NCBI GenBank assembly: GCA_963716585.1
Contig: CAVQTN010000002.1
Location: 28,480-92,479 of the forward strand
Direction of reading: 5' to 3'
From: an uncultured Chloroflexia bacterium
GTDB taxonomy: Bacteria > Chloroflexota > Limnocylindria > QHBO01
DNA: 64,000 nt
Shown piece by piece: positions 7,101 through 44,497 of the stretch (position 1 is its first letter; the number at the start of each line of letters is the position of its first letter). Below the pieces are notes generated by a model, which saw only the letters and a list, made by a program, of their open reading frames with translations, was not told the DNA's origin and made no database searches. Made by a program: the position numbers and the translations under genes.

Positions 7101-9188
7101 TCACGGGACCCAGCGCGGCTGCCAGCCATCATCTCCGATGCGACGGCTCCTTCCGCTGGACAGGTCGAACAGCCAGATACCACGCGCCGCCGGTGAGCCG
7201 CTGCGGCCGCCGGCGAGCAGCAGTCGATCCGGATCCGGGGTGAAGCGGACGGCGCTCAGCTGCATCGCGACAAGCAGGCTGCGGCCGGGACCGCCATCCG
7301 GGCGGGTCAGCCACGCGGCGCCGGTGCGGCCGCCGGGATCCAGCAACAGGTAGGCCATTCGCCCGTCGCCGTCGACCGTCGGCCGCGCGATCCCGTTCGG
7401 AAGGAGGCTGTCCACGGTCGCTTCGGCGCCGCGGTCGAGGCGAACGATCACCAGCGACCCGAGCAGCGAGTTGGCCAGGTCGCCGCTCTCGAGCTCGAGC
7501 GGCGCGACGGCCGCTCCGGGGCGCCGTGCGGGCGCGGACCCGGCACCCGACAGGCCGTTCAGCAGCAGGCCGCTCGAGTCGGGCAGCCAGACCGGCGGCT
7601 CGACCGAGCGGAAGGCTGCGGTGGTCAGACGCGCGGCGGGCAGCTCCAGCACGCCAACTCGGCCAGCCTCGTCGACAAAGGCAAGGGCGTGGCCGTCCGG
7701 GGAGTAGCGCGGCGCACGAAGCAGCGAGGCGGCCGGCTGGGCGGCGCTGGGCGATGGGGTCGCGCTGCCGGTCAGCTCGTCGGGCAGTTCAAGCTGGCGC
7801 GCGTCGCCACCGCCCGCCTCGCGGAGCCAGAGGCCCAGCCCGCTGCCGCTCGCCGCGTCGGCGCGGCCGAAGGCGATCTGCGCCCCGTTTGGTGAGTAGG
7901 TGGGATCAAACTCCAGGACGCCATCCTCGGTGAGGATGCGTCGCGATGTGCCGTCGGCGTGCTGCTCGACGAGGCGTGCACCATCGGCCACCACGAATGA
8001 GCGACCGTCGGGGGCGACGGCGTAATCCACGATCGGCGACAGCTCCGCGGAGAGCTGCCGCTGCCCGGTTCCGTCCGGATTCATGGCCCACAGGTTGGCA
8101 ACGCCCGATCGATCGGAGAGGTAGACCACCTGGTTGCCCAGGGTGGCCATCGGCGCGCCGGTCAGGAACGTCCAGGTCACCGACGCCGACAGACGAGAGC
8201 CGTCGGCACCGCGCAGGCCCGGGACGAGCGTCACCCGAAACGTCGTGTTGGGCGGCAGCGGGCCGGAGGGCTGAAACTCCAGCAGGCGGGCGTCGCCGTC
8301 CTGCAGGCCGGCCGCGCCCGGTGCGGCGACGACCGCCAGGGTGCCGGGCACGGCGGGGTCGAGCTCGAACTGGTCGTTGCCGAGGCTGCCCGGATCGAGG
8401 GCGCGGTCGAAGACGATGACGATCGGCGAGGTGACCGCGATGCCGTCGCTGGCATCGGCCGGGACGAGGCTGCGCACCGCCAGGCCGGGTGCCGTGGTCG
8501 AGAAGACGAGGCTGAAGGGCTGCTCAAGCGACGAGCCTCCGAGGTCGCGCGCACCCTGGCCGATGGTCACGGCGTAGCGCTGGTCGGCCGCCAGCGGCGC
8601 GCGTGGCTCGATCGTCAGCTGCTCGCCGCTCCAGCGCAGGTCGTAACCGACGGCCGGCGAAAGCTCGAGCGCGGTTGCCACCGAGCGCGTGTCCATGAGC
8701 GTCGAGAACGTGATGCGGATCGAGGCGTCGAGCGGCACGTCGGTCGCGTTGGCCGCGGGATCGCTGTCCACAACCTGCGGCTCGCCCACCGTCGTGAAGC
8801 CAAAGGCCGCCGAGGCCTGCTGCATCTCGTTGCCCGCGCTGTCGCGAACGCCGGGCTCGATGTGCGCCGTGAAGTCGGTCTTCGGCGGCAGCGGCTGCAG
8901 CGGGGTGAAGGTCAGGGTGCTGTCAGTCCAGCTGTAGGAGCCGTCGACGGCAGGCTCGATGCGGAAGGCGGCCTCCGCCTCCGGCTTGTCGACCGGCTCC
9001 GAGAAATGGATCTCGAGGCTGGTGCTGGTCAGCGCGACGGCGGTGTCCCCGGAGAGATGCTGACTCAGTGAGAAGCTGGTGACGCCCGGCGGACGCGAGT
9101 CGACGGTGCTGGCGTAGTACAGGATCCCGGCGAGCACGGCCGCGCCGACGACGAAGACCGCGAAGCTCCGCAGCAGCACACGCCGCAC
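7101..9188 (-). CDS. secreted or membrane-anchored protein with tandem Ig-like (Big/SbsA-type) domains and a C-terminal TolB-like beta-propeller (PD40 repeats)
   Basis: 695 aa with an N-terminal TM/signal anchor. Four or more repeats of about 90 aa with SPxxG/xDVPLDxxIxIxF patterns typical of bacterial Ig-like domains. The C-terminal half has PDG..xAF.. repeats typical of PD40/TolB propellers. The start overlaps the rpoN stop by 4 bp. Confidence 0.65.
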   Translation of the reverse strand: MRRVLLRSFAVFVVGAAVLAGILYYASTVDSRPPGVTSFSLSQHLSGDTAVALTSTSLEIHFSEPVDKPEAEAAFRIEPAVDGSYSWTDSTLTFTPLQPLPPKTDFTAHIEPGVRDSAGNEMQQASAAFGFTTVGEPQVVDSDPAANATDVPLDASIRITFSTLMDTRSVATALELSPAVGYDLRWSGEQLTIEPRAPLAADQRYAVTIGQGARDLGGSSLEQPFSLVFSTTAPGLAVRSLVPADASDGIAVTSPIVIVFDRALDPGSLGNDQFELDPAVPGTLAVVAAPGAAGLQDGDARLLEFQPSGPLPPNTTFRVTLVPGLRGADGSRLSASVTWTFLTGAPMATLGNQVVYLSDRSGVANLWAMNPDGTGQRQLSAELSPIVDYAVAPDGRSFVVADGARLVEQHADGTSRRILTEDGVLEFDPTYSPNGAQIAFGRADAASGSGLGLWLREAGGGDARQLELPDELTGSATPSPSAAQPAASLLRAPRYSPDGHALAFVDEAGRVGVLELPAARLTTAAFRSVEPPVWLPDSSGLLLNGLSGAGSAPARRPGAAVAPLELESGDLANSLLGSLVIVRLDRGAEATVDSLLPNGIARPTVDGDGRMAYLLLDPGGRTGAAWLTRPDGGPGRSLLVAMQLSAVRFTPDPDRLLLAGGRSGSPAARGIWLFDLSSGRSRRIGDDGWQPRWVP

Positions 9189-9191
9189 GGC

Positions 9192-10607
9192 CTAGCTGTG
9201 GCGCAGCCGAGCGGGCAGGATCTGCAGCTCGTCGCGGTACTTCGCGACGGTCCGTCGGGCGAGAACAACCCCGTCAGCCAGGAGCAGCTCGGCGATTTCC
9301 TGGTCCGAGTACGGATTCGCCTCGTCCTCGGCGTCGATCATCCTGCGGATCTGGTCCTTGATCCCCAGCGAGGCGGTGAAGAAGTGGCTGAAGGGCACGA
9401 CCTCGCCGGATGGGATCATCACGTACTTGTCGGCGGTCGCCCGGCTGACCGTGGACTCGTGCATGCCGATCACCTCCCCAACCTCGGCCCGGGTCAGGGA
9501 CACCAGGTGCTGGACGCCGTGTAACAGGTAGTCGCGCTGGCGATCGCACAGGCATTCGGCTATGCGCTGCATGGTCGCTCGCCGGCGGTTGATGTTGTCG
9601 ATGAAGAACTTGGCGCGGCCGACGTACTCTCGCACGTGCTGCTTCTCGTCCTCGGTCGCCTCCGCGCTGCGCAGCTGTGACGACAGGCTCGAATAGATGG
9701 GCGTCACACGCAGGCTGAAGCGCCGCGACTCGACGACCTCGACGAGGAGCTCACCGTCGACGACCCGGATGAGCACGTCCGGCCGGATGATGGTCCGGAG
9801 GCCACCCCCGCTCACGGCGGCGGTGAACGCCGAGGTCGGGTACGGGTGGAGGTTGGACTTCACGAATTCCCATGTCTCGACCACCGACTGGCTCTCGACC
9901 CCGATTCGCTGGCCGATCTCACGGAACTTGCGCTCGCCCAGCTGCTGCAGGTGGTCGCGGACCACGACCTCGGCGATCGGGGGCACAGACACCTCGTCGT
10001 CCATCTCGCGCAGATAGGCGATCTGCGCCAGCAGGCTCTCGGTGATGCTTCGTGAGCCGATGCCGATTGGCTCGAGGCCGCGCATCGCGGCGAGCACCTG
10101 CTCCACCTCCTCGAGTGTCGCACCGGTGGCCGCCGCAATCGCCTCGTCGCTCTCGGTCAGGAAGCCGCTGCCGTCCAGCGCTCCGATGACGTAGTCGGCC
10201 ACGCGGTGGAGCGCGGTCGGCAACAGGGCGTACAGGTTCCAGGTCAGGTGCTCGTCGAGCGTGAACTCGGCTTCGGCGCGCGCGATCAGGTCGAGCTCAT
10301 CGGCTTCGTCGCGCAGACGCTGCTGAGAATCGGCGGGCAGCTCGTCGACGGCGGAATCGGCCGGGTCGCCCTCGCTGGCCTTGCGAGGCATGCACTCGGT
10401 GCAGTAGTTGCCGCTGATCGGCGAGCCGCAGATTGGGCAGCTCGCCAGCTCCTCCATCTCGAGGGCGGGGTTCTCTTCGAGCTCCTGGCTGATCGCCTCC
10501 TGCAGCTCGACGGAGCTCATCTGCAGGATGTAGTTGGCGGCGATCTGCTTGGGCGTGACCTTGAGGTGCATCGCCGGCTGCAGCTGCTGCTTGAGATCGA
10601 GCGACAT
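9192..10607 (-). CDS. rpoN: RNA polymerase sigma-54 factor
   Basis: 471 aa. Region I MSLDLKQQLQ...LQMSSVELQEAISQELEENPALE, core-binding region, and C-terminal RpoN box ARRTVAKYRDEL. It also contains a C-x2-C-x9-C-x2-C insertion in region II (see findings). Confidence 0.9.
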   Translation of the reverse strand: MSLDLKQQLQPAMHLKVTPKQIAANYILQMSSVELQEAISQELEENPALEMEELASCPICGSPISGNYCTECMPRKASEGDPADSAVDELPADSQQRLRDEADELDLIARAEAEFTLDEHLTWNLYALLPTALHRVADYVIGALDGSGFLTESDEAIAAATGATLEEVEQVLAAMRGLEPIGIGSRSITESLLAQIAYLREMDDEVSVPPIAEVVVRDHLQQLGERKFREIGQRIGVESQSVVETWEFVKSNLHPYPTSAFTAAVSGGGLRTIIRPDVLIRVVDGELLVEVVESRRFSLRVTPIYSSLSSQLRSAEATEDEKQHVREYVGRAKFFIDNINRRRATMQRIAECLCDRQRDYLLHGVQHLVSLTRAEVGEVIGMHESTVSRATADKYVMIPSGEVVPFSHFFTASLGIKDQIRRMIDAEDEANPYSDQEIAELLLADGVVLARRTVAKYRDELQILPARLRHS

Positions 10608-20281: not shown

Positions 20282-21553
<1,272 letters not shown>

Positions 21554-21643
21554 CGGCTTGTGAAATGCCTCCTCTGCTGCGCGCTCGGGCGCCTCTACAC
21601 GCCGTCTCAGGGCGGAAGCTGGCCGCGAGTGCAGGGTTCCACG

Positions 21644-21674
21644 ATTATAGGGTCCGGCCGGGCCCCCCGGTGAA
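21644..21674 (-). promoter_or_regulatory. putative sigma-70-type promoter of gdhA (perfect TATAAT -10)
   Basis: The minus strand reads TTCACC(G)-18/19 nt-TATAAT about 90 nt upstream of the gdhA ATG. A perfect AT hexamer stands out in 72% GC DNA. Confidence 0.35.
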
Positions 21675-21691
21675 CGCCCCTCCCGAGCGCG

Positions 21692-22873
21692 CTAGACCAT
21701 CTCGACGGCGAGGGCCACCGCGCCACCGCCGCCCAGGCACAAAGTCGCCAGGCCGCGACGGCCGCCGGAGTGCCGGAGCGCGTACAGCAGGGTGGTCAGC
21801 ACGCGCGCCCCGGAGGCGCCGATCGGATGCCCAAGCGCGATCGCGCCGCCGTTGACGTTGACCCGGTCCCAGTCGAAGCCAAGCTCGTTGCCATCGGCCA
21901 GCACCTGCGCGGCGAAGGCCTCGTTGATCTCGATCAGGTCGAAGTCGCCGATGGTGGCGCCGAGCTTGTCGAGCAGCCGCCGGACGCCGTGGATCGGTGC
22001 CTCGAAGAGCCACTCCGGCGCGACGTCGGCCTGCGCATACCCGGTGATCCGCGCCATGGGTGTCAGGCCGTCACGGTCGATCGCCTCCTGCCCGGCAATG
22101 ACCAGTGCCGAGGCCCCGTCGGTGATGCCCGGAGCGTTGCCCGCAGTCACCGTCCCGCCATCGGGCTGGAAGGCCGGTTTCAGCTTCGCCAGGGCCTCGG
22201 CGCTGGTGTCGGCGCGCGGCGCCTCGTCTCTCGACACGATGGTGGGGCCTCTCCGACCGGCGACTTCGACCGGTACGATCTCGTCGTCGAAGGCGCCCGA
22301 CTCCTGTGCAGAGATGGCACGCTGGTGGGAGCGCAGCGCGAAGGCGTCCTGCGCCTCCCGCGTGATGTCATGCTTTCCTGCCACGCGCTCAGCGTGCAGG
22401 CCCATGTGCACATCGCAGATCGAGCACCACAGGCCGTCATGGACGGTGCTGTCCACCGCGGTCTGGTCCCCCAGCCGGTAGCCGGTGCGGGCGCCGGGGA
22501 GCAGGTACGGGCCGAGGTTCATGTTCTCCATGCCGCCCGCCACGATGACCTGCGCGTCGCCAGCGCGGATGGCGGCGCTGCCCATCATCACCGCCTTCAG
22601 GCCAGAGCCGCAGACCTTGTTGATGGTTGTCGCGCCGACGCCCTCGGGCAGGCCGCCCTTGAGCGCCGCCTGGCGGGCCGGTGCCTGGCCGACGCCCGCC
22701 TGCAGCACCTCGCCCATGATCGCCTCGTCGACGCGCTCGGGGGCGATGCCGGCACGCTCGATCGCGGCCCGGATGGCGGTCCCGCCCAGCTCGGGCGCGG
22801 GCACCGTCGAGAGGCCGCCGCCGAACTTGCCGATGGGCGTGCGGGCGGCTGAGAGGATGTACACGTCGTTCAT
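21692..22873 (-). CDS. acetyl-CoA C-acetyltransferase (thiolase II)
   Basis: The start is [19 protein letters not shown] at 22873. It has the thiolase active-site Cys region [11 protein letters not shown] and C-terminal CLGGGGAV. Confidence 0.9.
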
Positions 22874-22942
22874 GGGTCGATGGTACAGCCGGAGCCGTCG
22901 AGGGGCCACGCGGCGCCCTCGACGGGAACGCGCGCGCCGAGG

Positions 22943-24937
<1,995 letters not shown>

Positions 24938-24946
24938 GGAGCCGGC

Positions 24947-26128
24947 TCATCCCTCCCGACGCAGGCCCTCGAGAAGCTGCTGGGCGATGATGAGCCGATG
25001 GATCTGGTTCGTCCCCTCGTAGATCTGCGCCCCCTTGGCATCGCGCATGAAGCGCTCCACCGGGTTCTCGCGACTGTACCCCGCGCCGCCGTAGATCTGG
25101 ACCGCATCCGTGCTGACCCGCATGGCGGTGTCGCTGGCGAACATCTTGGCCATGCTCGAGGCGGCGTTGATCGGCCGGCCGGTGTCGCGCAGCCGCGCCG
25201 CGCGCCAGGTGAGCAGGCGCGCTGCCTCGACCGCGGTGGCCATGTCGGCGAGCATGGCCTGGATCATCTCCTGCTGCCCGATCGGCCGGCCGAACTGGCT
25301 GCGCTGGTTGGCATAGCGACCGGCGTGCTCGAGCGCGGCGCGGGCCAGGCCGACGCAGGCCGCGGCAATGCTGATCCTGCCGGAGCCGAGCGCGCTGAGA
25401 GCAACCTTCAGTCCGTCGCCCTCGCCGCCCAGTCGGTCGGTAGCCGGCACGCGGGCCTCCTCGAAGACGAGCTCCGCCGCGGTCGTGCCGCGGATGCCCA
25501 TCTTGTGCTCCTTCGCGCCGAGCCTGAACCCGGGGGTGTCGTGCTCGACCACGAAGGCGGTGATCCCCTCGCGGCCCCGCGAGCGGTCGACCGTCGCAAA
25601 CACCACATATCGCTGGGCCTCGCCGGCATTGCTGATCCAGATCTTGCTGCCGGTGAGCCGGTAATCGTCCCCGTCGCGCTCGGCGCGCAGCGCGATGGCC
25701 GAAGCGTCCGACCCCGCCTGCGGCTCGGTCAGGGCGAAGGCGCCGAGCTCGCGGCCGGCGGTCATGCCGGGCAGGAAGCGCCGGTGCTGCTCATCGGTCC
25801 CGTGCGCGAAGATGCAGAGCTGGCTCAGGATGTGGACGCTCAGCGAGACCGCCATCCCCATGTCGGCGGCGGCGATCTCCTCGCAGGCGAGAATCCAGGC
25901 GAACGTGGTCAGCCCCGCCCCGCCGACCTCTTCGGGATACGGCAGGCCGGTGATGCCAAGCTCGCCGGCGCGCTCGAAGAGGTGCCGGTCGTACCGCTCC
26001 TGCTCGTCGCGGTCGGCGGCGCCCGGTGCGATCTCGCGCTGGGCGAAGTCACGCACCGTGTCGCGAATACTGCGCTCCTCGGCGCTGAGGGCGAACGGAT
26101 CGCGGACGGTCGCGGTCGCGCGCACCAT
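24947..26128 (-). CDS. acyl-CoA dehydrogenase
   Basis: 393 aa. ACAD N/M/C domains, FALTEPQAGSD and YEGTNQIHRLIIA motifs. Confidence 0.88.
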   Translation of the reverse strand: MVRATATVRDPFALSAEERSIRDTVRDFAQREIAPGAADRDEQERYDRHLFERAGELGITGLPYPEEVGGAGLTTFAWILACEEIAAADMGMAVSLSVHILSQLCIFAHGTDEQHRRFLPGMTAGRELGAFALTEPQAGSDASAIALRAERDGDDYRLTGSKIWISNAGEAQRYVVFATVDRSRGREGITAFVVEHDTPGFRLGAKEHKMGIRGTTAAELVFEEARVPATDRLGGEGDGLKVALSALGSGRISIAAACVGLARAALEHAGRYANQRSQFGRPIGQQEMIQAMLADMATAVEAARLLTWRAARLRDTGRPINAASSMAKMFASDTAMRVSTDAVQIYGGAGYSRENPVERFMRDAKGAQIYEGTNQIHRLIIAQQLLEGLRREG

Positions 26129-27000
26129 CAGCCGATCCTGCTGCCCTGCTCGTCGTAGCGGTAGAAGCCGCGCCCGGTCTTGCGCCCGAGGTGGCCGGCC
26201 GCGACCATCTGGCGCAGGAGCGGTGCCGCCCGAAACTTCGGATCGCCGAAGCCCCGGTACAGGACGTCCAGGACGCCGAGCATCACGTCATTGCCGATGA
26301 AGTCGCTGAGCTCCAGCGGGCCCATCGGGTGGTTGAGTCCCAGTTTGGCGCCGGTGTCGATATCGTCGGCGCTGCCGGTCGAATCCATCAGCGCGAAAAC
26401 CGCCTCGTTGATGAATGGTCCGAGCATGCGATTGACCAGGAAGCCGGGGTAGTCCTTCGACTCGATGACCGTCTTGCCGAGCTCCCCCGCAAAGGAACGG
26501 CAGGCTTCGTAGGTCGCCGCATCGGTCTCGAGGCCGCGGATGATCTCGATCAGCTTCATGACCGGGACCGGGGAGAAGAAGTGCAGGCCGATGAACCTTG
26601 CCGGGCGGTCGGTCGCGGTGGCCAGGCTGGTGATGCTGATGCTGCTGGTGTTGCTGGCGAAGATCGCCTGCGGGCTTGCGACCTCGCTCAGCTCGCGCCA
26701 CGTCTCGCGCTTGAGCGCCTCGTCCTCGTAGACCGCCTCGACGACCAGGTCGTGCTCGGCGGCGCCCCGGGTGCCCTCCGCGGTGACGATGCGGCCGAGC
26801 ATGTCATCGGCCTTCGCCTGCTCCAGCCGGTGCTTGTCGACCTGGCGCTGCAGGTTGTCGGCCACACGCTGCTTTCCCCTGTCCGCGAGCGCCCCGGTAC
26901 GATCGGAGAGCGTGACCTGCTTGCCGGCGGCGACGCTGACCTGCGCGATGCCGTGGCCCATCAGCCCGGCGCCGACGACGTAGATCCGTTCGATGCTCAT
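26128..27000 (-). CDS. hbd: 3-hydroxybutyryl-CoA / 3-hydroxyacyl-CoA dehydrogenase
   Basis: The real start is MSIERIYVVGAGLMGHGIAQV (Rossmann GxGxxG) at 27000. It also has the DYPGFLVNR motif. The upstream six-frame extension is spurious. Confidence 0.88.
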   Translation of the reverse strand: MSIERIYVVGAGLMGHGIAQVSVAAGKQVTLSDRTGALADRGKQRVADNLQRQVDKHRLEQAKADDMLGRIVTAEGTRGAAEHDLVVEAVYEDEALKRETWRELSEVASPQAIFASNTSSISITSLATATDRPARFIGLHFFSPVPVMKLIEIIRGLETDAATYEACRSFAGELGKTVIESKDYPGFLVNRMLGPFINEAVFALMDSTGSADDIDTGAKLGLNHPMGPLELSDFIGNDVMLGVLDVLYRGFGDPKFRAAPLLRQMVAAGHLGRKTGRGFYRYDEQGSRIG

Positions 27001-27028
27001 CGCGACGAAGGGTAGCAGGGGCCTGCGG

Positions 27029-27949
27029 TCAAGGCCCGAGGAGCCGGGCTGCTGCGGTGATTGGATCCAGGTCGCGTGCGGCGACCGCATCCAGGGTCGC
27101 ATCCCACGCCGATGACGCACGCGCACGCCGCAGCGCGAGATCCGCCAGCGCCCGACCGATCTGGGCGCGAGCCCGATCGCGCGCCTGCTCCGGCGATCTG
27201 GCGACGGACCGATGCGCTTCGATGGCGTCGACGAGCGCGGCGACGCCATCGCCCGTCGTGGCAGTCGTGATCATGATCGGCGGGGCGGCGCGTGCGACCC
27301 GTCCACCGGCCGTCGACATCATGGCGCGCAGCTGCCGCGCGGCATGCTGGGCGCCGGGCCGATCGCCCTTGTTGACGGCGATCACGTCGGCGACCTCCAG
27401 CAGCCCGGCCTTGATGGCCTGCACCTCGTCCCCCATCTCGGGCACCTCCACCACGACGGTCGTCTCGGCGAGGTGGGCGATCTCGACCTCCGACTGGCCG
27501 GCCCCGACCGTCTCGACCAGGACCGGATCGTAGCCCGCAGCGTCGAGCGCCGCGGCGGCGGTCCAGGTCGCCGCGGCCAGGCCGCCGAGCTCGCCGCGCG
27601 AGGCCATGGACCGCATGAACACGTCGCGGTCGGCCGCGTGATCCATCATCCGGATGCGGTCGCCCATGATCGCGCCGCCGGTGTACGGCGAGCTGGGATC
27701 GACTGCCAGCACGCCCACGCGGCGGCCACGCCGCCGGAACTCGGAGATGAGCGCGTTGACCAGCGTGGACTTGCCGCTCCCCGGCGGACCGGTGATGCCC
27801 ACCAGGTGCGCCGCGCGGCCCGCGGCGAAGAGCCGCGGCAGCATCGGCCTGAGATCCGGGTCACCGCGTTCGATGGCGGTCAGCAGCCGCGCCAAGGGCC
27901 GCCGCTCACCGGTTCGCGCGGCCTCGATGAGCGCCGCGAAGTCGGTCAC
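27029..27949 (-). CDS. meaB: methylmalonyl-CoA mutase-associated G-protein chaperone (MeaB/ArgK)
   Basis: P-loop [12 protein letters not shown], and switch/NKxD region AVNKGD. 306 aa. The start overlaps the upstream B12-subunit stop. Confidence 0.88.
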
Positions 27950-32955: not shown

Positions 32956-33904
32956 ATGCGGACCTACCGCAAGCTCGCCCTCGGGGCGTCGGTGCTGGCA
33001 CTGCTGGTCAGCGCCTGCACGACGGGTGGGGGCAGCAGCACCAGCGCATCGCCGAGCGGCAGCGTACCGGCTTCGACCGCGGTCAAGCCAAAGGTGGTGG
33101 TCGGCTCGGCCGACTTCTACGAGTCGGCCCTCGTCGCCGAGGTCTACGCGCAGGCCCTCGAGGGCAAGGGCTACACCGTCGAGCGCAAGCTGAACATCGG
33201 CGCCCGACAGGTCGACCAATGCGGCTCTCAAGTCCGGGGAGCTGAACCTGATGCCGGAGTACATCGGCAGCGAGGCGCGCGAGCTCAAGGCGACGGCCAC
33301 CGGCGACCCGGACGCGACGGCCGCGAACCTCAAGGCCGCCCTCGCGCCCCTTGGCCTGACGGTACTCGACATCGCGCCCGGACAGGACCAGAACGGCTTC
33401 GTCGTGCGCCAGGAGACGGCCGACCAGCACAGCCTGGCATCGCTGAGCGATCTCGCCAAGGTGGCCGACCAGCTGAAATGGGGGCTCCCGAAGGAGTGCT
33501 CGACCAATCCCTCCTGCGGTCAGGCGCTGAAGGATTCCTACGGGATCGACGTCAGCAAGCTGCAGGTCACCAAGCTCGACCCGTGCGGCTCGGCCATGGC
33601 GCAGGCGCTGACGTCGAGCAACATCGACGTCGCCGAGCTTTGCACCACACAGCCGGACATCGAAAGCTTCAACCTGGTCCTGCTCGACGACGACAAGCAG
33701 TCGCAGTCGGCCGACAACATGGCGCCGATCGTCCGCCAGGACCTGCTGGACGCGGCGCCCTCCGACTTCGCCGAGACGCTCAATGCGGTGTCCGCCAAGC
33801 TCACCACCGAGCAGCTCACCAAGATGAACGTCGCGGTGGCGGTCGATCACCAGGACCCCGCCAAGGTGGCCGAACAATTCCTGAAGGACAGCGGCCTGGC
33901 CTAG
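32956..33904 (+). pseudogene. osmoprotectant ABC transporter substrate-binding lipoprotein (OpuCC/OpuAC-like), interrupted by a +1 frameshift near 33216
   Basis: AAGGAGGA RBS. Lipoprotein signal LLVSAC. The N-terminal part KVVVGSADFYESALVAEVYAQALEGKGYTVERKLNIGARQVD is in frame 1. The rest ...ALKSGELNLMPEYIGSEAREL... runs to 33904 in frame 2. Removing one C from GTCGACCAATG restores a continuous ~315 aa protein. Confidence 0.8.
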
Positions 33905-40323: not shown

Positions 40324-41262
40324 CTAGGGAAGCGTCAGGATGCGCCGCGGATTTTCGATGGTCATCTGCTGGATCTCGCCCTCCCCCACGGCGGCGGTGC
40401 GCAGCTTGGGCAGGAAGTGCTGCTGCAGGTAGACGTAGCCGAAGCCGCCGTAGGCCTTCAGCTGCGCGTTGTGGCAGACATCCTGGCTGAGCAGCAGCTG
40501 TTCGCCGAAGCCGCGCTCAAGCAGCTCGACGATCAGCTCGATCAGCCGCGGCTCGGCGGCTTCCTCGATCCCGAAGCGCTGGCCCAGGAAGTCGAACTGC
40601 AGGTTCGCGCCCCGGTCCAGGATCGCAAGGTAGTGGTCGAGGTTCGGGTACGAGTCGGCGTGTCCGATGACCACACGCGCCGGATCCACGGACTCTTCCT
40701 CGAAGATGGCCAGCTGGGCGAGGCCCACCGGCGACATCACGGCATGGGTGCTGATCGCCATGCCGGTCTGCCGCGCAGCGCGCGCCGCGGCGCGATGCAC
40801 GCGCTCCTCGCGAGCGCTGACCCACGGCTTGTCGGTGCCGATCTCGCCGATGATTCCCGGCCGCACCCCCGTGCCGGCGACCCCGTCGGCGAGCTCGCGG
40901 ATCATCTCGCCGGCAAGGTCGTCGACGCTGCGTCGATCGATGAGCGCCTCGACCGGGTAGTAGGCCTCGCGATACCAGCCGGTGCCCATCACGATCTGCA
41001 GCCGGGTGCTGCCCGCCAGGCGGCGCAGCCGCTCCGGGTCGCGGCCCACGCCCGGGGCGGTCAAATCCACCAGCGTCGCGCCGCCGCGGCGGCGGAAGTC
41101 GCGCAGCTCGTCCGCGACGAGCTCCTCGTCGGGCGTCAGCTCCCAGTAGTCCCATCGGTCTCGGACGTGCCACAGCGAGATCCCGGTGTGCTCGTGCGGC
41201 AGCGTGAAGCCAACGCTGTCGGGAGGAATCGGTCCGGCGACGGTCATGACGTGGGGTGCCAT
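40324..41262 (-). CDS. phosphotriesterase family (PTE/Php) metal-dependent hydrolase
   Basis: The start is MAPHVMTVAG at 41262. GFTLPHEH (the His-x-His motif of the amidohydrolase fold) and downstream His/Asp ligands. The six-frame ORF N-extension is spurious. Confidence 0.8.
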   Translation of the reverse strand: MAPHVMTVAGPIPPDSVGFTLPHEHTGISLWHVRDRWDYWELTPDEELVADELRDFRRRGGATLVDLTAPGVGRDPERLRRLAGSTRLQIVMGTGWYREAYYPVEALIDRRSVDDLAGEMIRELADGVAGTGVRPGIIGEIGTDKPWVSAREERVHRAAARAARQTGMAISTHAVMSPVGLAQLAIFEEESVDPARVVIGHADSYPNLDHYLAILDRGANLQFDFLGQRFGIEEAAEPRLIELIVELLERGFGEQLLLSQDVCHNAQLKAYGGFGYVYLQQHFLPKLRTAAVGEGEIQQMTIENPRRILTLP

Positions 41263-41423
41263 CTGGCTCACCTCGGCGATCGGTTCGCTCCGGCCAGCGC
41301 ACAGGGGCCGCCGCAGCGAGGATTTCGTGGATGGCGCCATGTTGCCATGCGCGGCGCGAAGGCATGGCGCCGACCCCCGGCAGCGGCTAGCCTTGCCGCA
41401 CCCCGAGCAGGAGCAACGGACGC

Positions 41424-42695
41424 ATGGCCCTCGAGACCAATCGGACGGCAATCCCGGACAACAGCTGGACCGCGGCTCAACAGGACGTCGACGACGCGGC
41501 CGCGCGCCTGCAGCTCGACGACGGCATGCGACGCGTGCTGCGCGTGCCGAAGCGCGAGCTGCAGGTCGACTTCCCGGTAACGATGGATAACGGCACGGTC
41601 CGGACGTTCACCGGCTTCCGCGTCCACCACAACATCAATCGCGGGCCGGCAACCGGTGGCGTGCGCTTCACCCGCGATCTGACCCTCGACCTCGTGCGTG
41701 CCCAGGCCATGCTCAACAGCTGGAAGGCGGCGCTCGTCCAGATTCCGTATGGCGGTGCGGCCGGCGGCGTTGTCGTCAACCCCCGGCGGCTGAGCCGCCA
41801 CGAGCGCGAGGGGCTCACCCGGCGCTACGCGACAGAAATCAGCCCGTTCATGGGACCGGAGCGTGACATCCCGACCCCGGACGTCAACACCGGGTCACAG
41901 ACCATGGCCTGGATCATGGACACCTACTCGATGCACGTCGGCCACACCGTCGCGGCGGTCGTCTCGGGCAAGCCGCTCGAGATCGGCGGCACGCGCGGAC
42001 GGCGCGAGGCGACCAGCCGCGGCGCGTTCCGCACCATTGCCGCCTGCGCCCGAACGATCGATCTGAGCCTCGACGGTGCGCGGGTCGCGATGCAGGGCTT
42101 CGGCCGGGTCGGCAGCATCCTGGCCGAGATGCTGTGCCAGGCCGGCTGCCGGGTGATCGCCATCGCCGACGATCGAGATGCGGTGACGCGGGCGTCGGGC
42201 ATCGACGTCGACCGGGCGACCGGCTGGATCCACGAGCACGACACGATCGGCGGCCTGCCGGACACCGAGCCGATGGATCGGGCCGAGATCTTCTCAGCCG
42301 ACTGCGAGATCCTCGTCTCGGCAGGGGTCCAGAACCAGGTCACTGCCGCGAACGCGGGCGCGGTCCGGGCGCGGATCGTGGCCGAGGCGTCGAACGCGCC
42401 CACGACGCCCGACGCACACGCCATCCTGCGCGAGTCGGGTATCCGGGTCATCCCCGACATCCTGTGCACGGCCGGCGGCATGGTGCTCGGCTACTTCGAG
42501 TGGGTCCAGGACATGCAGTCCTTTTTCTGGACCGATGCGGAGATCACCGATCAGCTCGACCGGATGATGGACGCCGCCTTCGCCGAGGTCGTGGCCACCA
42601 GCGAGGCGAAGAAGGTGGACCTGCGCAGCGCGGCGATGATGGTGGCGGTCGGTCGCGTGGCGGAGGCGACGCAGCTGCGCGGTCTCTACCCGTAG
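41424..42695 (+). CDS. glutamate dehydrogenase paralog lacking two of the three active-site lysines (probable non-catalytic or regulatory GDH-like subunit)
   Basis: 423 aa, collinear with gdhA (20282..21553). PAKGG becomes PATGG and GGGKGG becomes GGAAGG. The second Lys (WKAA) and the Asp box PTPDVNT are retained. Confidence 0.85.
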
Positions 42696-42750
42696 GACAT
42701 CAGGGCGCATCCGCTTGCCGGGGCATCGGTCTTGCCCTCAAGATTGCGCC

Positions 42751-44497
<1,747 letters not shown>

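Follow-up and report, generated by a model that had tools for sequence, protein, structure and literature searches.

Why would a bacterial lineage keep, next to an ordinary glutamate dehydrogenase (GDH), a second full-length GDH gene in which catalytic lysines have been replaced? The question is raised by a stretch of 64,000 nucleotides, called the window below, from an uncultured Chloroflexia bacterium of the Limnocylindria lineage (assembly GCA_963716585.1, contig CAVQTN010000002.1, positions 28,480 to 92,479 of the forward strand). Two GDH genes are located in the window, 20 kb apart and on opposite strands; the second is here called the dead paralog (coordinates are those of the window; ORF, open reading frame; AF2, AlphaFold2):

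20282..21553, minus strand, catalytic GDH paralog (copy 1), 423 aa, with all canonical residues; the presumed partner of copy 2 (ORF listing, BLASTP, Pfam)
41424..42695, plus strand, dead GDH paralog (copy 2), 423 aa, ELFV_dehydrog_N and ELFV_dehydrog domains (ORF listing, BLASTP, Pfam, AF2/Foldseek)

We consider it highly probable that copy 2 is a selected and folded member of the GDH fold without GDH activity. By analogy, and with only a slight leaning in its favour, we further infer that it acts as a regulator of the catalytic paralog within a hexamer made of both.

Both ORFs have the coordinates and the length of 423 aa given in a preliminary description of this DNA, which had not mentioned that 20282..21553 lies on the minus strand. 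BLASTP aligned the two proteins end to end without a gap (423 residues; 56% identity, 73% positives), in agreement with the 55-60% identity and the collinearity claimed there. Both match PF02812 (dimerisation domain) and PF00208 (NAD(P)-binding domain) over the full profile, copy 2 scoring above the gathering score with 205 bits for PF00208 and 159.7 bits for PF02812, and a tblastn search with copy 1 found no third GDH in the window. The NCBIfam equivalog GdhA_Arch, with a cutoff of 750 bits, gave 425 bits for copy 2 and 587 bits for copy 1; it discriminates poorly because copy 1 is likewise under the cutoff. At the active site, copy 1 reads RGPAKGG, WKCA and FGGGKGG, and all three lysines reported for it (in PAKGG, WKCA and GGGKGG) are there in the sequence. 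The corresponding motifs of copy 2 are RGPATGG, WKAA and YGGAAGG.

Residues 41-167 of copy 2 (fragment 3-129) were aligned with HMMER to residues 53-179 of 1bgv_A, the two segments being of equal length, which sets an offset of +12 to the numbering of C. symbiosum GDH (CsGDH). The resulting correspondences are T77 to K89, N98 to Q110, K101 to K113, A113 to K125, T151 to A163 and D153 to D165. In CsGDH, K89 and S380 bind the gamma-carboxyl group of the substrate and K113 the alpha-carboxyl group; D165 participates in proton transfer, and K125 serves as general base. Among the Glu/Leu/Phe/Val dehydrogenases that have been characterised, the lysine equivalent to K125 is conserved and indispensable for catalysis. 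The threonine of PATGG and the alanine of GGAAGG therefore do stand at catalytic lysine positions, as had been proposed. In the second of these motifs only the change of lysine to alanine at residue 113 is informative, and that of glycine to alanine at residue 112 is meaningless since GGAKGG is common among lysine-bearing GDHs.

Residue frequencies were counted in a MAFFT alignment of 119 full-length dead-clade sequences and 120 orthologs of copy 1. The dead-clade homologs were the best 120 cluster representatives from a search of 5.8 billion proteins; almost all are of 415-445 aa, and they come from metagenomes and metagenome-assembled genomes (MAGs) of Chloroflexota and Candidatus Limnocylindria. 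The codons concerned, and the segment that forms part of the substrate pocket, are as follows:

41652..41654, plus strand, codon of Thr77 (CsGDH Lys89 position); T in 97, S in 18 and A in 4 of 119 dead-clade sequences, K in 120/120 catalytic sequences
41724..41726, plus strand, codon of Lys101 (CsGDH Lys113 position), retained; K in 115 and R in 4 of 119
41760..41762, plus strand, codon of Ala113 (catalytic CsGDH Lys125 position); M in 92, A in 21, F in 4 and S in 2 of 119, K in 120/120 catalytic sequences
41880..41882, plus strand, codon of Asp153 (CsGDH Asp165 position), retained in 119/119
42468..42491, plus strand, pocket segment T349-A-G-G-M353-V-L-G356; N-A-G-G-V-T-V-S in copy 1

Among the best 120 representatives, lysine was found at neither of the two positions wherever the motif could be read, and both lysines were lost in 119/119 aligned sequences. 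The change extends beyond the two lysines to which the preliminary description had confined it, with the positions of Q110, A163, N373, V377 and S380 altered too. The last three fall in the 349-356 segment, NAGGVTVS in copy 1 and TAGGMVLG in copy 2, where the CsGDH numbering presumably holds on the strength of the known NAGGVxxS motif; Gly356, at the S380 position, is glycine in 93/119 dead-clade sequences. At positions 77, 98, 109, 113, 151, 191, 194, 349, 353, 354, 355 and 356, the catalytic clade has K-M-Y-K-A-L-N-N-V-T-V-S, the commonest dead-clade state is T-N-W-M-T-R-R-S-L-L-L-G, and copy 2 itself has T-N-Y-A-T-R-R-T-M-V-L-G. The dead-clade pocket has lost the two positive charges and the serine that hold the glutamate side chain, has bulkier hydrophobic residues at 113 and 353-355, and has gained arginines at 191 and 194, at the pocket mouth beside the conserved R193 (the R205 equivalent). 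A113 mostly accompanies M353 and M113 accompanies L353, an association confounded by phylogeny; the pairing looks like size compensation in a packed cavity and not like catalysis.

Other parts of the site are invariant or nearly so in the dead clade, namely K101, D153, R193, the Gly-rich loops, the Rossmann glycines G225, G227 and G230, and D249, and the earlier statement that the Asp box and the Rossmann motif are conserved stands. Given the established role of K125, copy 2 is predicted to lack GDH activity: without the general-base lysine it would be unable to carry out oxidative deamination, and with K89 and S380 missing and bulkier hydrophobics occupying the side-chain pocket it would probably no longer recognise glutamate. 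In the mechanism that we propose, copy 2 would be a correctly folded, hexamer-type subunit that is incapable of this reaction.

The substitutions in copy 2 are not sequencing errors, because a second, independent assembly is identical over the gene. The same protein is on record from contig L001 of the same organism, which is 99.8% identical to the window along 21.3 kb. The two sequences differ there by 33 mismatches and 6 single-base indels, with zero differences inside 41424..42695. The indels are at 33213, 34391, 35473, 41279, 43621 and 51648, and ORF calls near them may be broken by consensus errors. Identities among the orthologs spread over 63-100%, so they are not contaminants of one sequence.

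The dead clade is conserved in a manner of its own. Columns with at least 98% invariance number 166/423 in the dead clade versus 265 in the catalytic clade, and 62 positions are fixed in the catalytic clade and different in the dead clade; the new fixed residues include H68, T83, L86, N98, R121, G157, T190, R194, R228 and V229, as well as D250, A253, A265, R286, F290, G301 and Q303. The ratio of nonsynonymous to synonymous substitution rates (dN/dS) by the Nei-Gojobori method (NG86) was 0.12-0.18 for the closest dead-clade pairs, at dS of 0.55-0.8, and 0.06-0.13 for catalytic pairs; the ratios are rough because dS is near saturation in a 70% GC genome, and they are still far below 1. The dead copy has diverged at roughly twice the rate of the catalytic one (the best 120 homologs span 68-100% versus 83-92% identity), and its divergence (63-84% identity) is about that of the neighbouring PolX and phosphotriesterase-family (PTE) genes. 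Its GC content at third codon positions is 0.90, like that of the surrounding genes. With an ORF intact in two assemblies, conservation across the clade and these dN/dS values, the earlier proposal that the gene is kept by selection and is not a decaying pseudogene was borne out.

An AF2 model of copy 2, built on a 64-sequence alignment, reached pLDDT 79.5 and pTM 0.82, and its best Foldseek matches were the GDHs of Thermus and Thermotoga (TM 0.83-0.85); a complex of GDH with glutamate synthase (PDB 7mfm) was also among the matches. By sequence, the best PDB match was to canonical hexameric GDHs (E 2e-120). An interface leucine-binding site has been defined in Thermus GDH (PMC9570180). Its residues, namely the second R of TRRY (R135), the D of MDTYS (D166) and the C-terminal R-G-L-Y-P, do not vary in any of the 119 dead or the 120 catalytic sequences. 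Conservation compared between the oligomerisation domain and the NAD domain followed the same trend in both clades and does not discriminate.

The one precedent in the literature searched is that of Thermus. As described in PMC9570180 and bioRxiv 10.1101/2025.10.31.685773, GdhA of Thermus is a catalytically inactive regulatory subunit. It assembles with the catalytic GdhB into a hetero-hexamer, and the activating effect of leucine, which binds at subunit interfaces, is exerted through it. The latter text also reports an APRT homolog that binds the Thermus GdhAB complex (bioRxiv 10.1101/2025.10.31.685773). For our comparisons, the residues of GdhA were read from the gene upstream of gdhB on metagenome contig L008, which is 99% identical to T. 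thermophilus, and the GdhB sequence was rebuilt from a PDB alignment and then used to scan metagenome contigs. The T. thermophilus protein is TTC1211 (PDB 3AOE, chains E-H). The L008 GdhA, of 419 aa, carries RGPAKGG, WMTLKAA and PFGGAAGG, and has retained the Lys89 equivalent.

Is copy 2 then a GdhA? Identity to GdhA is 41% for copy 2, 42% for copy 1 and 46% for GdhB. Averaged over the clades, the dead clade is 58% identical to the catalytic clade, 49% to GdhB and 39% to GdhA. A neighbour-joining tree was constructed from corrected p-distances of 157 sequences, a modest method, of which 131 were retrieved by an exhaustive HMMER search through 1.84 billion representatives of clusters at 50% identity. 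In this tree the dead clade, on a long stem, is sister to the Limnocylindria catalytic clade, and Thermus GdhA is placed far away, among other sequences that lack the lysine. The dead clade was monophyletic in 200/200 bootstrap replicates, all its members being of the Limnocylindria lineage, and the dead plus live clade was recovered in 141/200; in a second bootstrap run, 157/200 replicates had precisely the live clade as sister group of the dead clade, and in 0/200 did that sister group contain GdhA. Despite the modest method, the conclusion of an independent origin is robust because of the gap in identity, 58% versus 39%. On this sequence comparison, the dead copy is the product of a separate, lineage-specific duplication, convergent with GdhA and not orthologous to it. 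In a scan of GTDB species genomes, the dead-type loci listed (at least 8, with 63-84% identity) all came from Limnocylindria or 'uncultured Chloroflexia' MAGs; no MAG with both the dead and the live type was among the loci listed in this pattern-limited scan. A catalytic GDH would have been duplicated within the Limnocylindria lineage of Chloroflexota, and the dead copy would then have been kept under purifying selection.

The genes adjacent to the dead paralog in the window are:

40324..41262, minus strand, PTE-family gene (PF02126), a divergent neighbour, syntenic throughout the clade
41263..41423, no strand, 161-nt divergent intergenic spacer from the PTE gene to the dead GDH, with no recognisable RNA element, promoter or terminator
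42751..44497, plus strand, acyl-CoA mutase large subunit (PF01642), frameshifted in the window, starting 55 nt after the dead GDH

The order PolX(PHP)-PTE, both on the minus strand, followed by the dead GDH on the plus strand, is held in nearly all of 15 Limnocylindria loci. The mutase, also on the plus strand, lies between 11 nt and about 3.6 kb 3' of the dead GDH, and in several genomes the gap is as short as 11-61 nt. In some relatives a LuxR-type regulator of 939-1017 aa (AAA_16, TPR and GerE) and a small ORF are located between the two on the opposite strand (L002 11361..14651, L004 11378..14888 and L005 8719..12229). The preliminary description had pointed to the mutase and PTE genes next door; this adjacency proved to be conserved synteny, with the link to the mutase broken by insertions in some relatives. 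Co-transcription of GDH and mutase is possible since the gap is 55 nt and no terminator is predicted in between. A functional GDH-mutase operon was down-weighted as an explanation, the adjacency being broken by insertions and the partner genes of the mutase not being nearby. The frameshift in the mutase is due to one extra C at 43621 relative to L001, where the gene is intact with 581 aa; where complete in relatives it has 561-583 aa, and the frameshift probably reflects an indel in the assembly and not a genuine pseudogene. In L002, on a 2.24-Mb contig, the PTE gene at 8887..9826 is in two pieces (a 115-aa call and two tblastn segments), by frameshift or real decay.

The spacer had been described as a 160-nt regulatory region. 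Scans of 41100-42900 for Rfam families (E <= 1), sigma-70 promoters and terminators found nothing relevant, and an alignment of the orthologous loci gave 54% column identity, so that a structured regulatory leader upstream of the dead GDH was rejected and the region is regarded as an ordinary divergent spacer, poorly conserved. In several orthologous loci (L003 at about 9870-9915, and the equivalent in L006 and L007) the spacer contains an inverted repeat, rich in GC and conserved in part, GTGCCGGTGCGGC ... GCCGCCGGCAC, with GTGCCA after it; in the window it is weak and degenerate at 41263..41330. The repeat could be an operator. Neither the spacer nor the adjacency of mutase and PTE says much about function.

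The catalytic GDH closes a minus-strand run at 20282..27270 with 3-hydroxyacyl-CoA dehydrogenase, acyl-CoA dehydrogenase, AMP-binding acyl-CoA ligase and thiolase genes, and is followed by a gene for an AAA_26/DRTGG protein. A beta-oxidation-type cluster of this kind is an unusual neighbourhood for a GDH.

What, then, does the dead paralog do? We favour the reading that copy 2 would co-assemble with copy 1 into hetero-hexamers and tune the activity or allosteric response of copy 1, a regulatory role reached by convergence with GdhA-GdhB of Thermus thermophilus. This partnership is suggested by the precedent of GdhA, the convergent loss of the same residue, the leucine-site residues kept in both paralogs and the fact that the genome also encodes a catalytic paralog. 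Several observations weigh against it. The two genes are unlinked; a second GDH was found within the 3-10 kb flanks of the dead gene in 0/15 Limnocylindria loci, and the genes conserved around it (PTE family, PolX, acyl-CoA mutase) are not genes of nitrogen metabolism. The AF2 model is of low confidence at residues 143-188. Moreover, the alignment indicates that the old active site is not merely relaxed; it is re-fixed to N98, T/S151, R191, R194 and T/S349, and a site re-fixed in this way could bind a new ligand rather than be an inert scaffold.

These last points lead to the alternatives. Copy 2 may form a stand-alone homo-hexamer that responds to NAD(H), to a neutral amino acid or acid, or to both, and acts as sensor or moonlighting regulator of a partner other than GDH, for example a transcription factor, glutamate synthase or the acyl-CoA mutase next door. 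The invariant Rossmann glycines and D249, the pocket re-fixed to new residues with R191 and R194 gained at its mouth, and the retained equivalents of the alpha-carboxylate lysine, D165 and R205 are all consistent with a ligand-binding protein of this kind; GDH-fold proteins do bind other proteins, as in PDB 7mfm. The dead gene is never linked to a catalytic GDH, its linkage to PTE is conserved, and the mutase is usually downstream, but gene order says little about function here. In several genomes the 3-4 kb insertion with the LuxR-type gene separates the mutase from the dead GDH, the mutase's own partner genes are not nearby, and the sampled genomes are fairly close relatives, so that the synteny may be merely inherited. 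Apart from the APRT homolog on Thermus GdhAB, the literature searched describes no non-GDH partner of a dead GDH, and we hold the sensor reading to be possible though doubtful. More broadly put, the dead GDH would not be a GDH subunit at all: its ligand site may have been rebuilt, with Lys101, Asp153 and Arg193 kept and Asn98, Thr151, Arg191, Arg194 and Thr349 newly fixed, and the hexamer would serve as a metabolite/NAD(H) sensor or as a new enzyme on another partner such as the mutase. This we consider unlikely.

A neofunctionalised NAD(P)-dependent enzyme, with for example a 2-oxo or amino acid that is neutral or of different charge as substrate and a mechanism that dispenses with the Lys125 general base, would explain why the new pocket residues are under strong purifying selection and why the D165, K113 and R205 equivalents and the cofactor-binding glycines are kept. 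Changes at K89 and S380 are also of the kind that alters side-chain specificity among Glu/Leu/Phe/Val dehydrogenases. However, the Lys125 equivalent is essential in the family members characterised, and since residue 113 varies between M, A, F and S with no conserved replacement base evident, a new enzymatic activity is improbable. The A113/M353 and M113/L353 pairs have the appearance of cavity packing, and Thermus GdhA, the only characterised protein with the same motif, is reported inactive; we regard a new enzyme as very unlikely. As for a decaying pseudogene or an assembly or sequencing artefact, the 6 single-base indels elsewhere in the 21 kb, one of which frameshifts the neighbouring mutase, give some ground for suspicion. 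Against this, the second assembly has the same unbroken ORF without any difference, both lysines are likewise lost in relatives from many independent metagenomes, dN/dS is low and divergence matches that of PolX and PTE, and this reading is excluded for practical purposes by conservation.

Returning to the regulatory paralog that we favour, it would not stand alone as a lysine-less GDH. In a motif scan of the 150 nearest 50%-cluster representatives, the catalytic lysine was absent in 19, replaced by S, Q, M, A, R, H, G or C, and the Lys89 equivalent was absent in 8, mostly with Leu instead. The lysine-less representatives (among P0124-P0270) occupy at least 4 separate positions in the tree, so such paralogs are recurrent, and pseudo-GDHs appear widespread and polyphyletic. 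A wider form of the reading that we consider unlikely takes the proportion, about 1 in 8 of the nearest representatives, to point to a large class of bacterial pseudoenzymes derived from GDH, polyphyletic and for the most part unstudied. The literature searched held the Thermus case as the only pseudo-GDH, and nothing for Limnocylindria. The dead clade, abundant in soil and freshwater Limnocylindria, would thus be a second, independently evolved pseudo-GDH lineage in that literature, and one which has gone beyond GdhA in losing both gamma-carboxyl ligands too and in being genetically unlinked from its presumed catalytic partner. Taken with the 19 lysine-less representatives, this suggests that regulation of the carbon-nitrogen branch point has repeatedly been achieved by turning a GDH paralog into a subunit without catalysis.

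There is also a practical side. Dead-clade proteins are labelled in public records 'glutamate dehydrogenase (NAD(P)+)' or 'Glu/Leu/Phe/Val dehydrogenase', as are those of the catalytic clade, and automatic annotation does not separate the two. Metabolic reconstructions of Limnocylindria MAGs would over-count GDH activity because dead genes are annotated 'glutamate dehydrogenase (NAD(P)+)'.

Among known systems, the canonical hexameric GDHs (Thermus GdhB, 3AOG; Thermotoga maritima, 1B26; and copy 1) share with copy 2 the length, the domain order and the cofactor glycines, and differ from it in having the catalytic lysine and the ligands of the glutamate side chain. Retention of a dead paralog as regulator of its active counterpart in a hetero-oligomer is described in PMC5201418 and PMC3663545. 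The trypanosomatid AdoMetDC prozyme and the dead paralog of deoxyhypusine synthase, both activators, resemble the present case in principle only, with unrelated folds and organisms.

Within the Thermus GdhA lineage the picture is varied. A tandem of dead and then live genes was found in 11/15 of the loci closest to GdhB (L008-L022, 78-99% identity) and was absent in L014-L016 and L018. Meiothermus-like GdhA homologs (L011-L013, L017 and L022, at about 1500-2900) carry RGPALGG and GGSAGG, with both lysines lost, and the 50%-cluster representative P0196, which has Meiothermus-type motifs, is sister to GdhA in the tree, which places these homologs in the Thermus GdhA lineage. In other Deinococcota-like loci (L019-L021), the dead member of the dead-live tandem has GGASGG or GGAAGG with a GGLxMDYLEW segment. 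Since the motifs of these dead members differ, the lineage varies in which substrate ligands it has lost. The Meiothermus type and copy 2 both lack both lysines, with Leu at the Lys89 position in the former and Thr/Ser in the dead clade; the Meiothermus-type gene, unlike that of the window, is in tandem with a catalytic gdhB.

The nearest functional counterpart is Thermus GdhA itself, the analogy raised in the preliminary description. As regards orthology it fails (0/200 bootstraps, 39-41% identity), and as regards the motif it is closer than claimed, GGAAGG being identical in the two proteins. T. thermophilus GdhA keeps the Lys89 and Ser380 equivalents, both of which are missing from copy 2, and gdhA is directly upstream of gdhB, whereas the dead gene of the window is 20 kb from the catalytic gene and on the other strand. 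The inactivity of GdhA, its hetero-hexamer and the activation by leucine are experimental findings. Like copy 2, Thermus GdhA is a full-length protein of the hexamer-type GDH fold in which the catalytic lysine has become alanine; the equivalents of A163, N373, V377 and the following residues are altered in both; and both keep the K113 and D165 equivalents, the leucine-site residues and the C-terminal R-G-x-Y-P, each beside a coexisting catalytic paralog.

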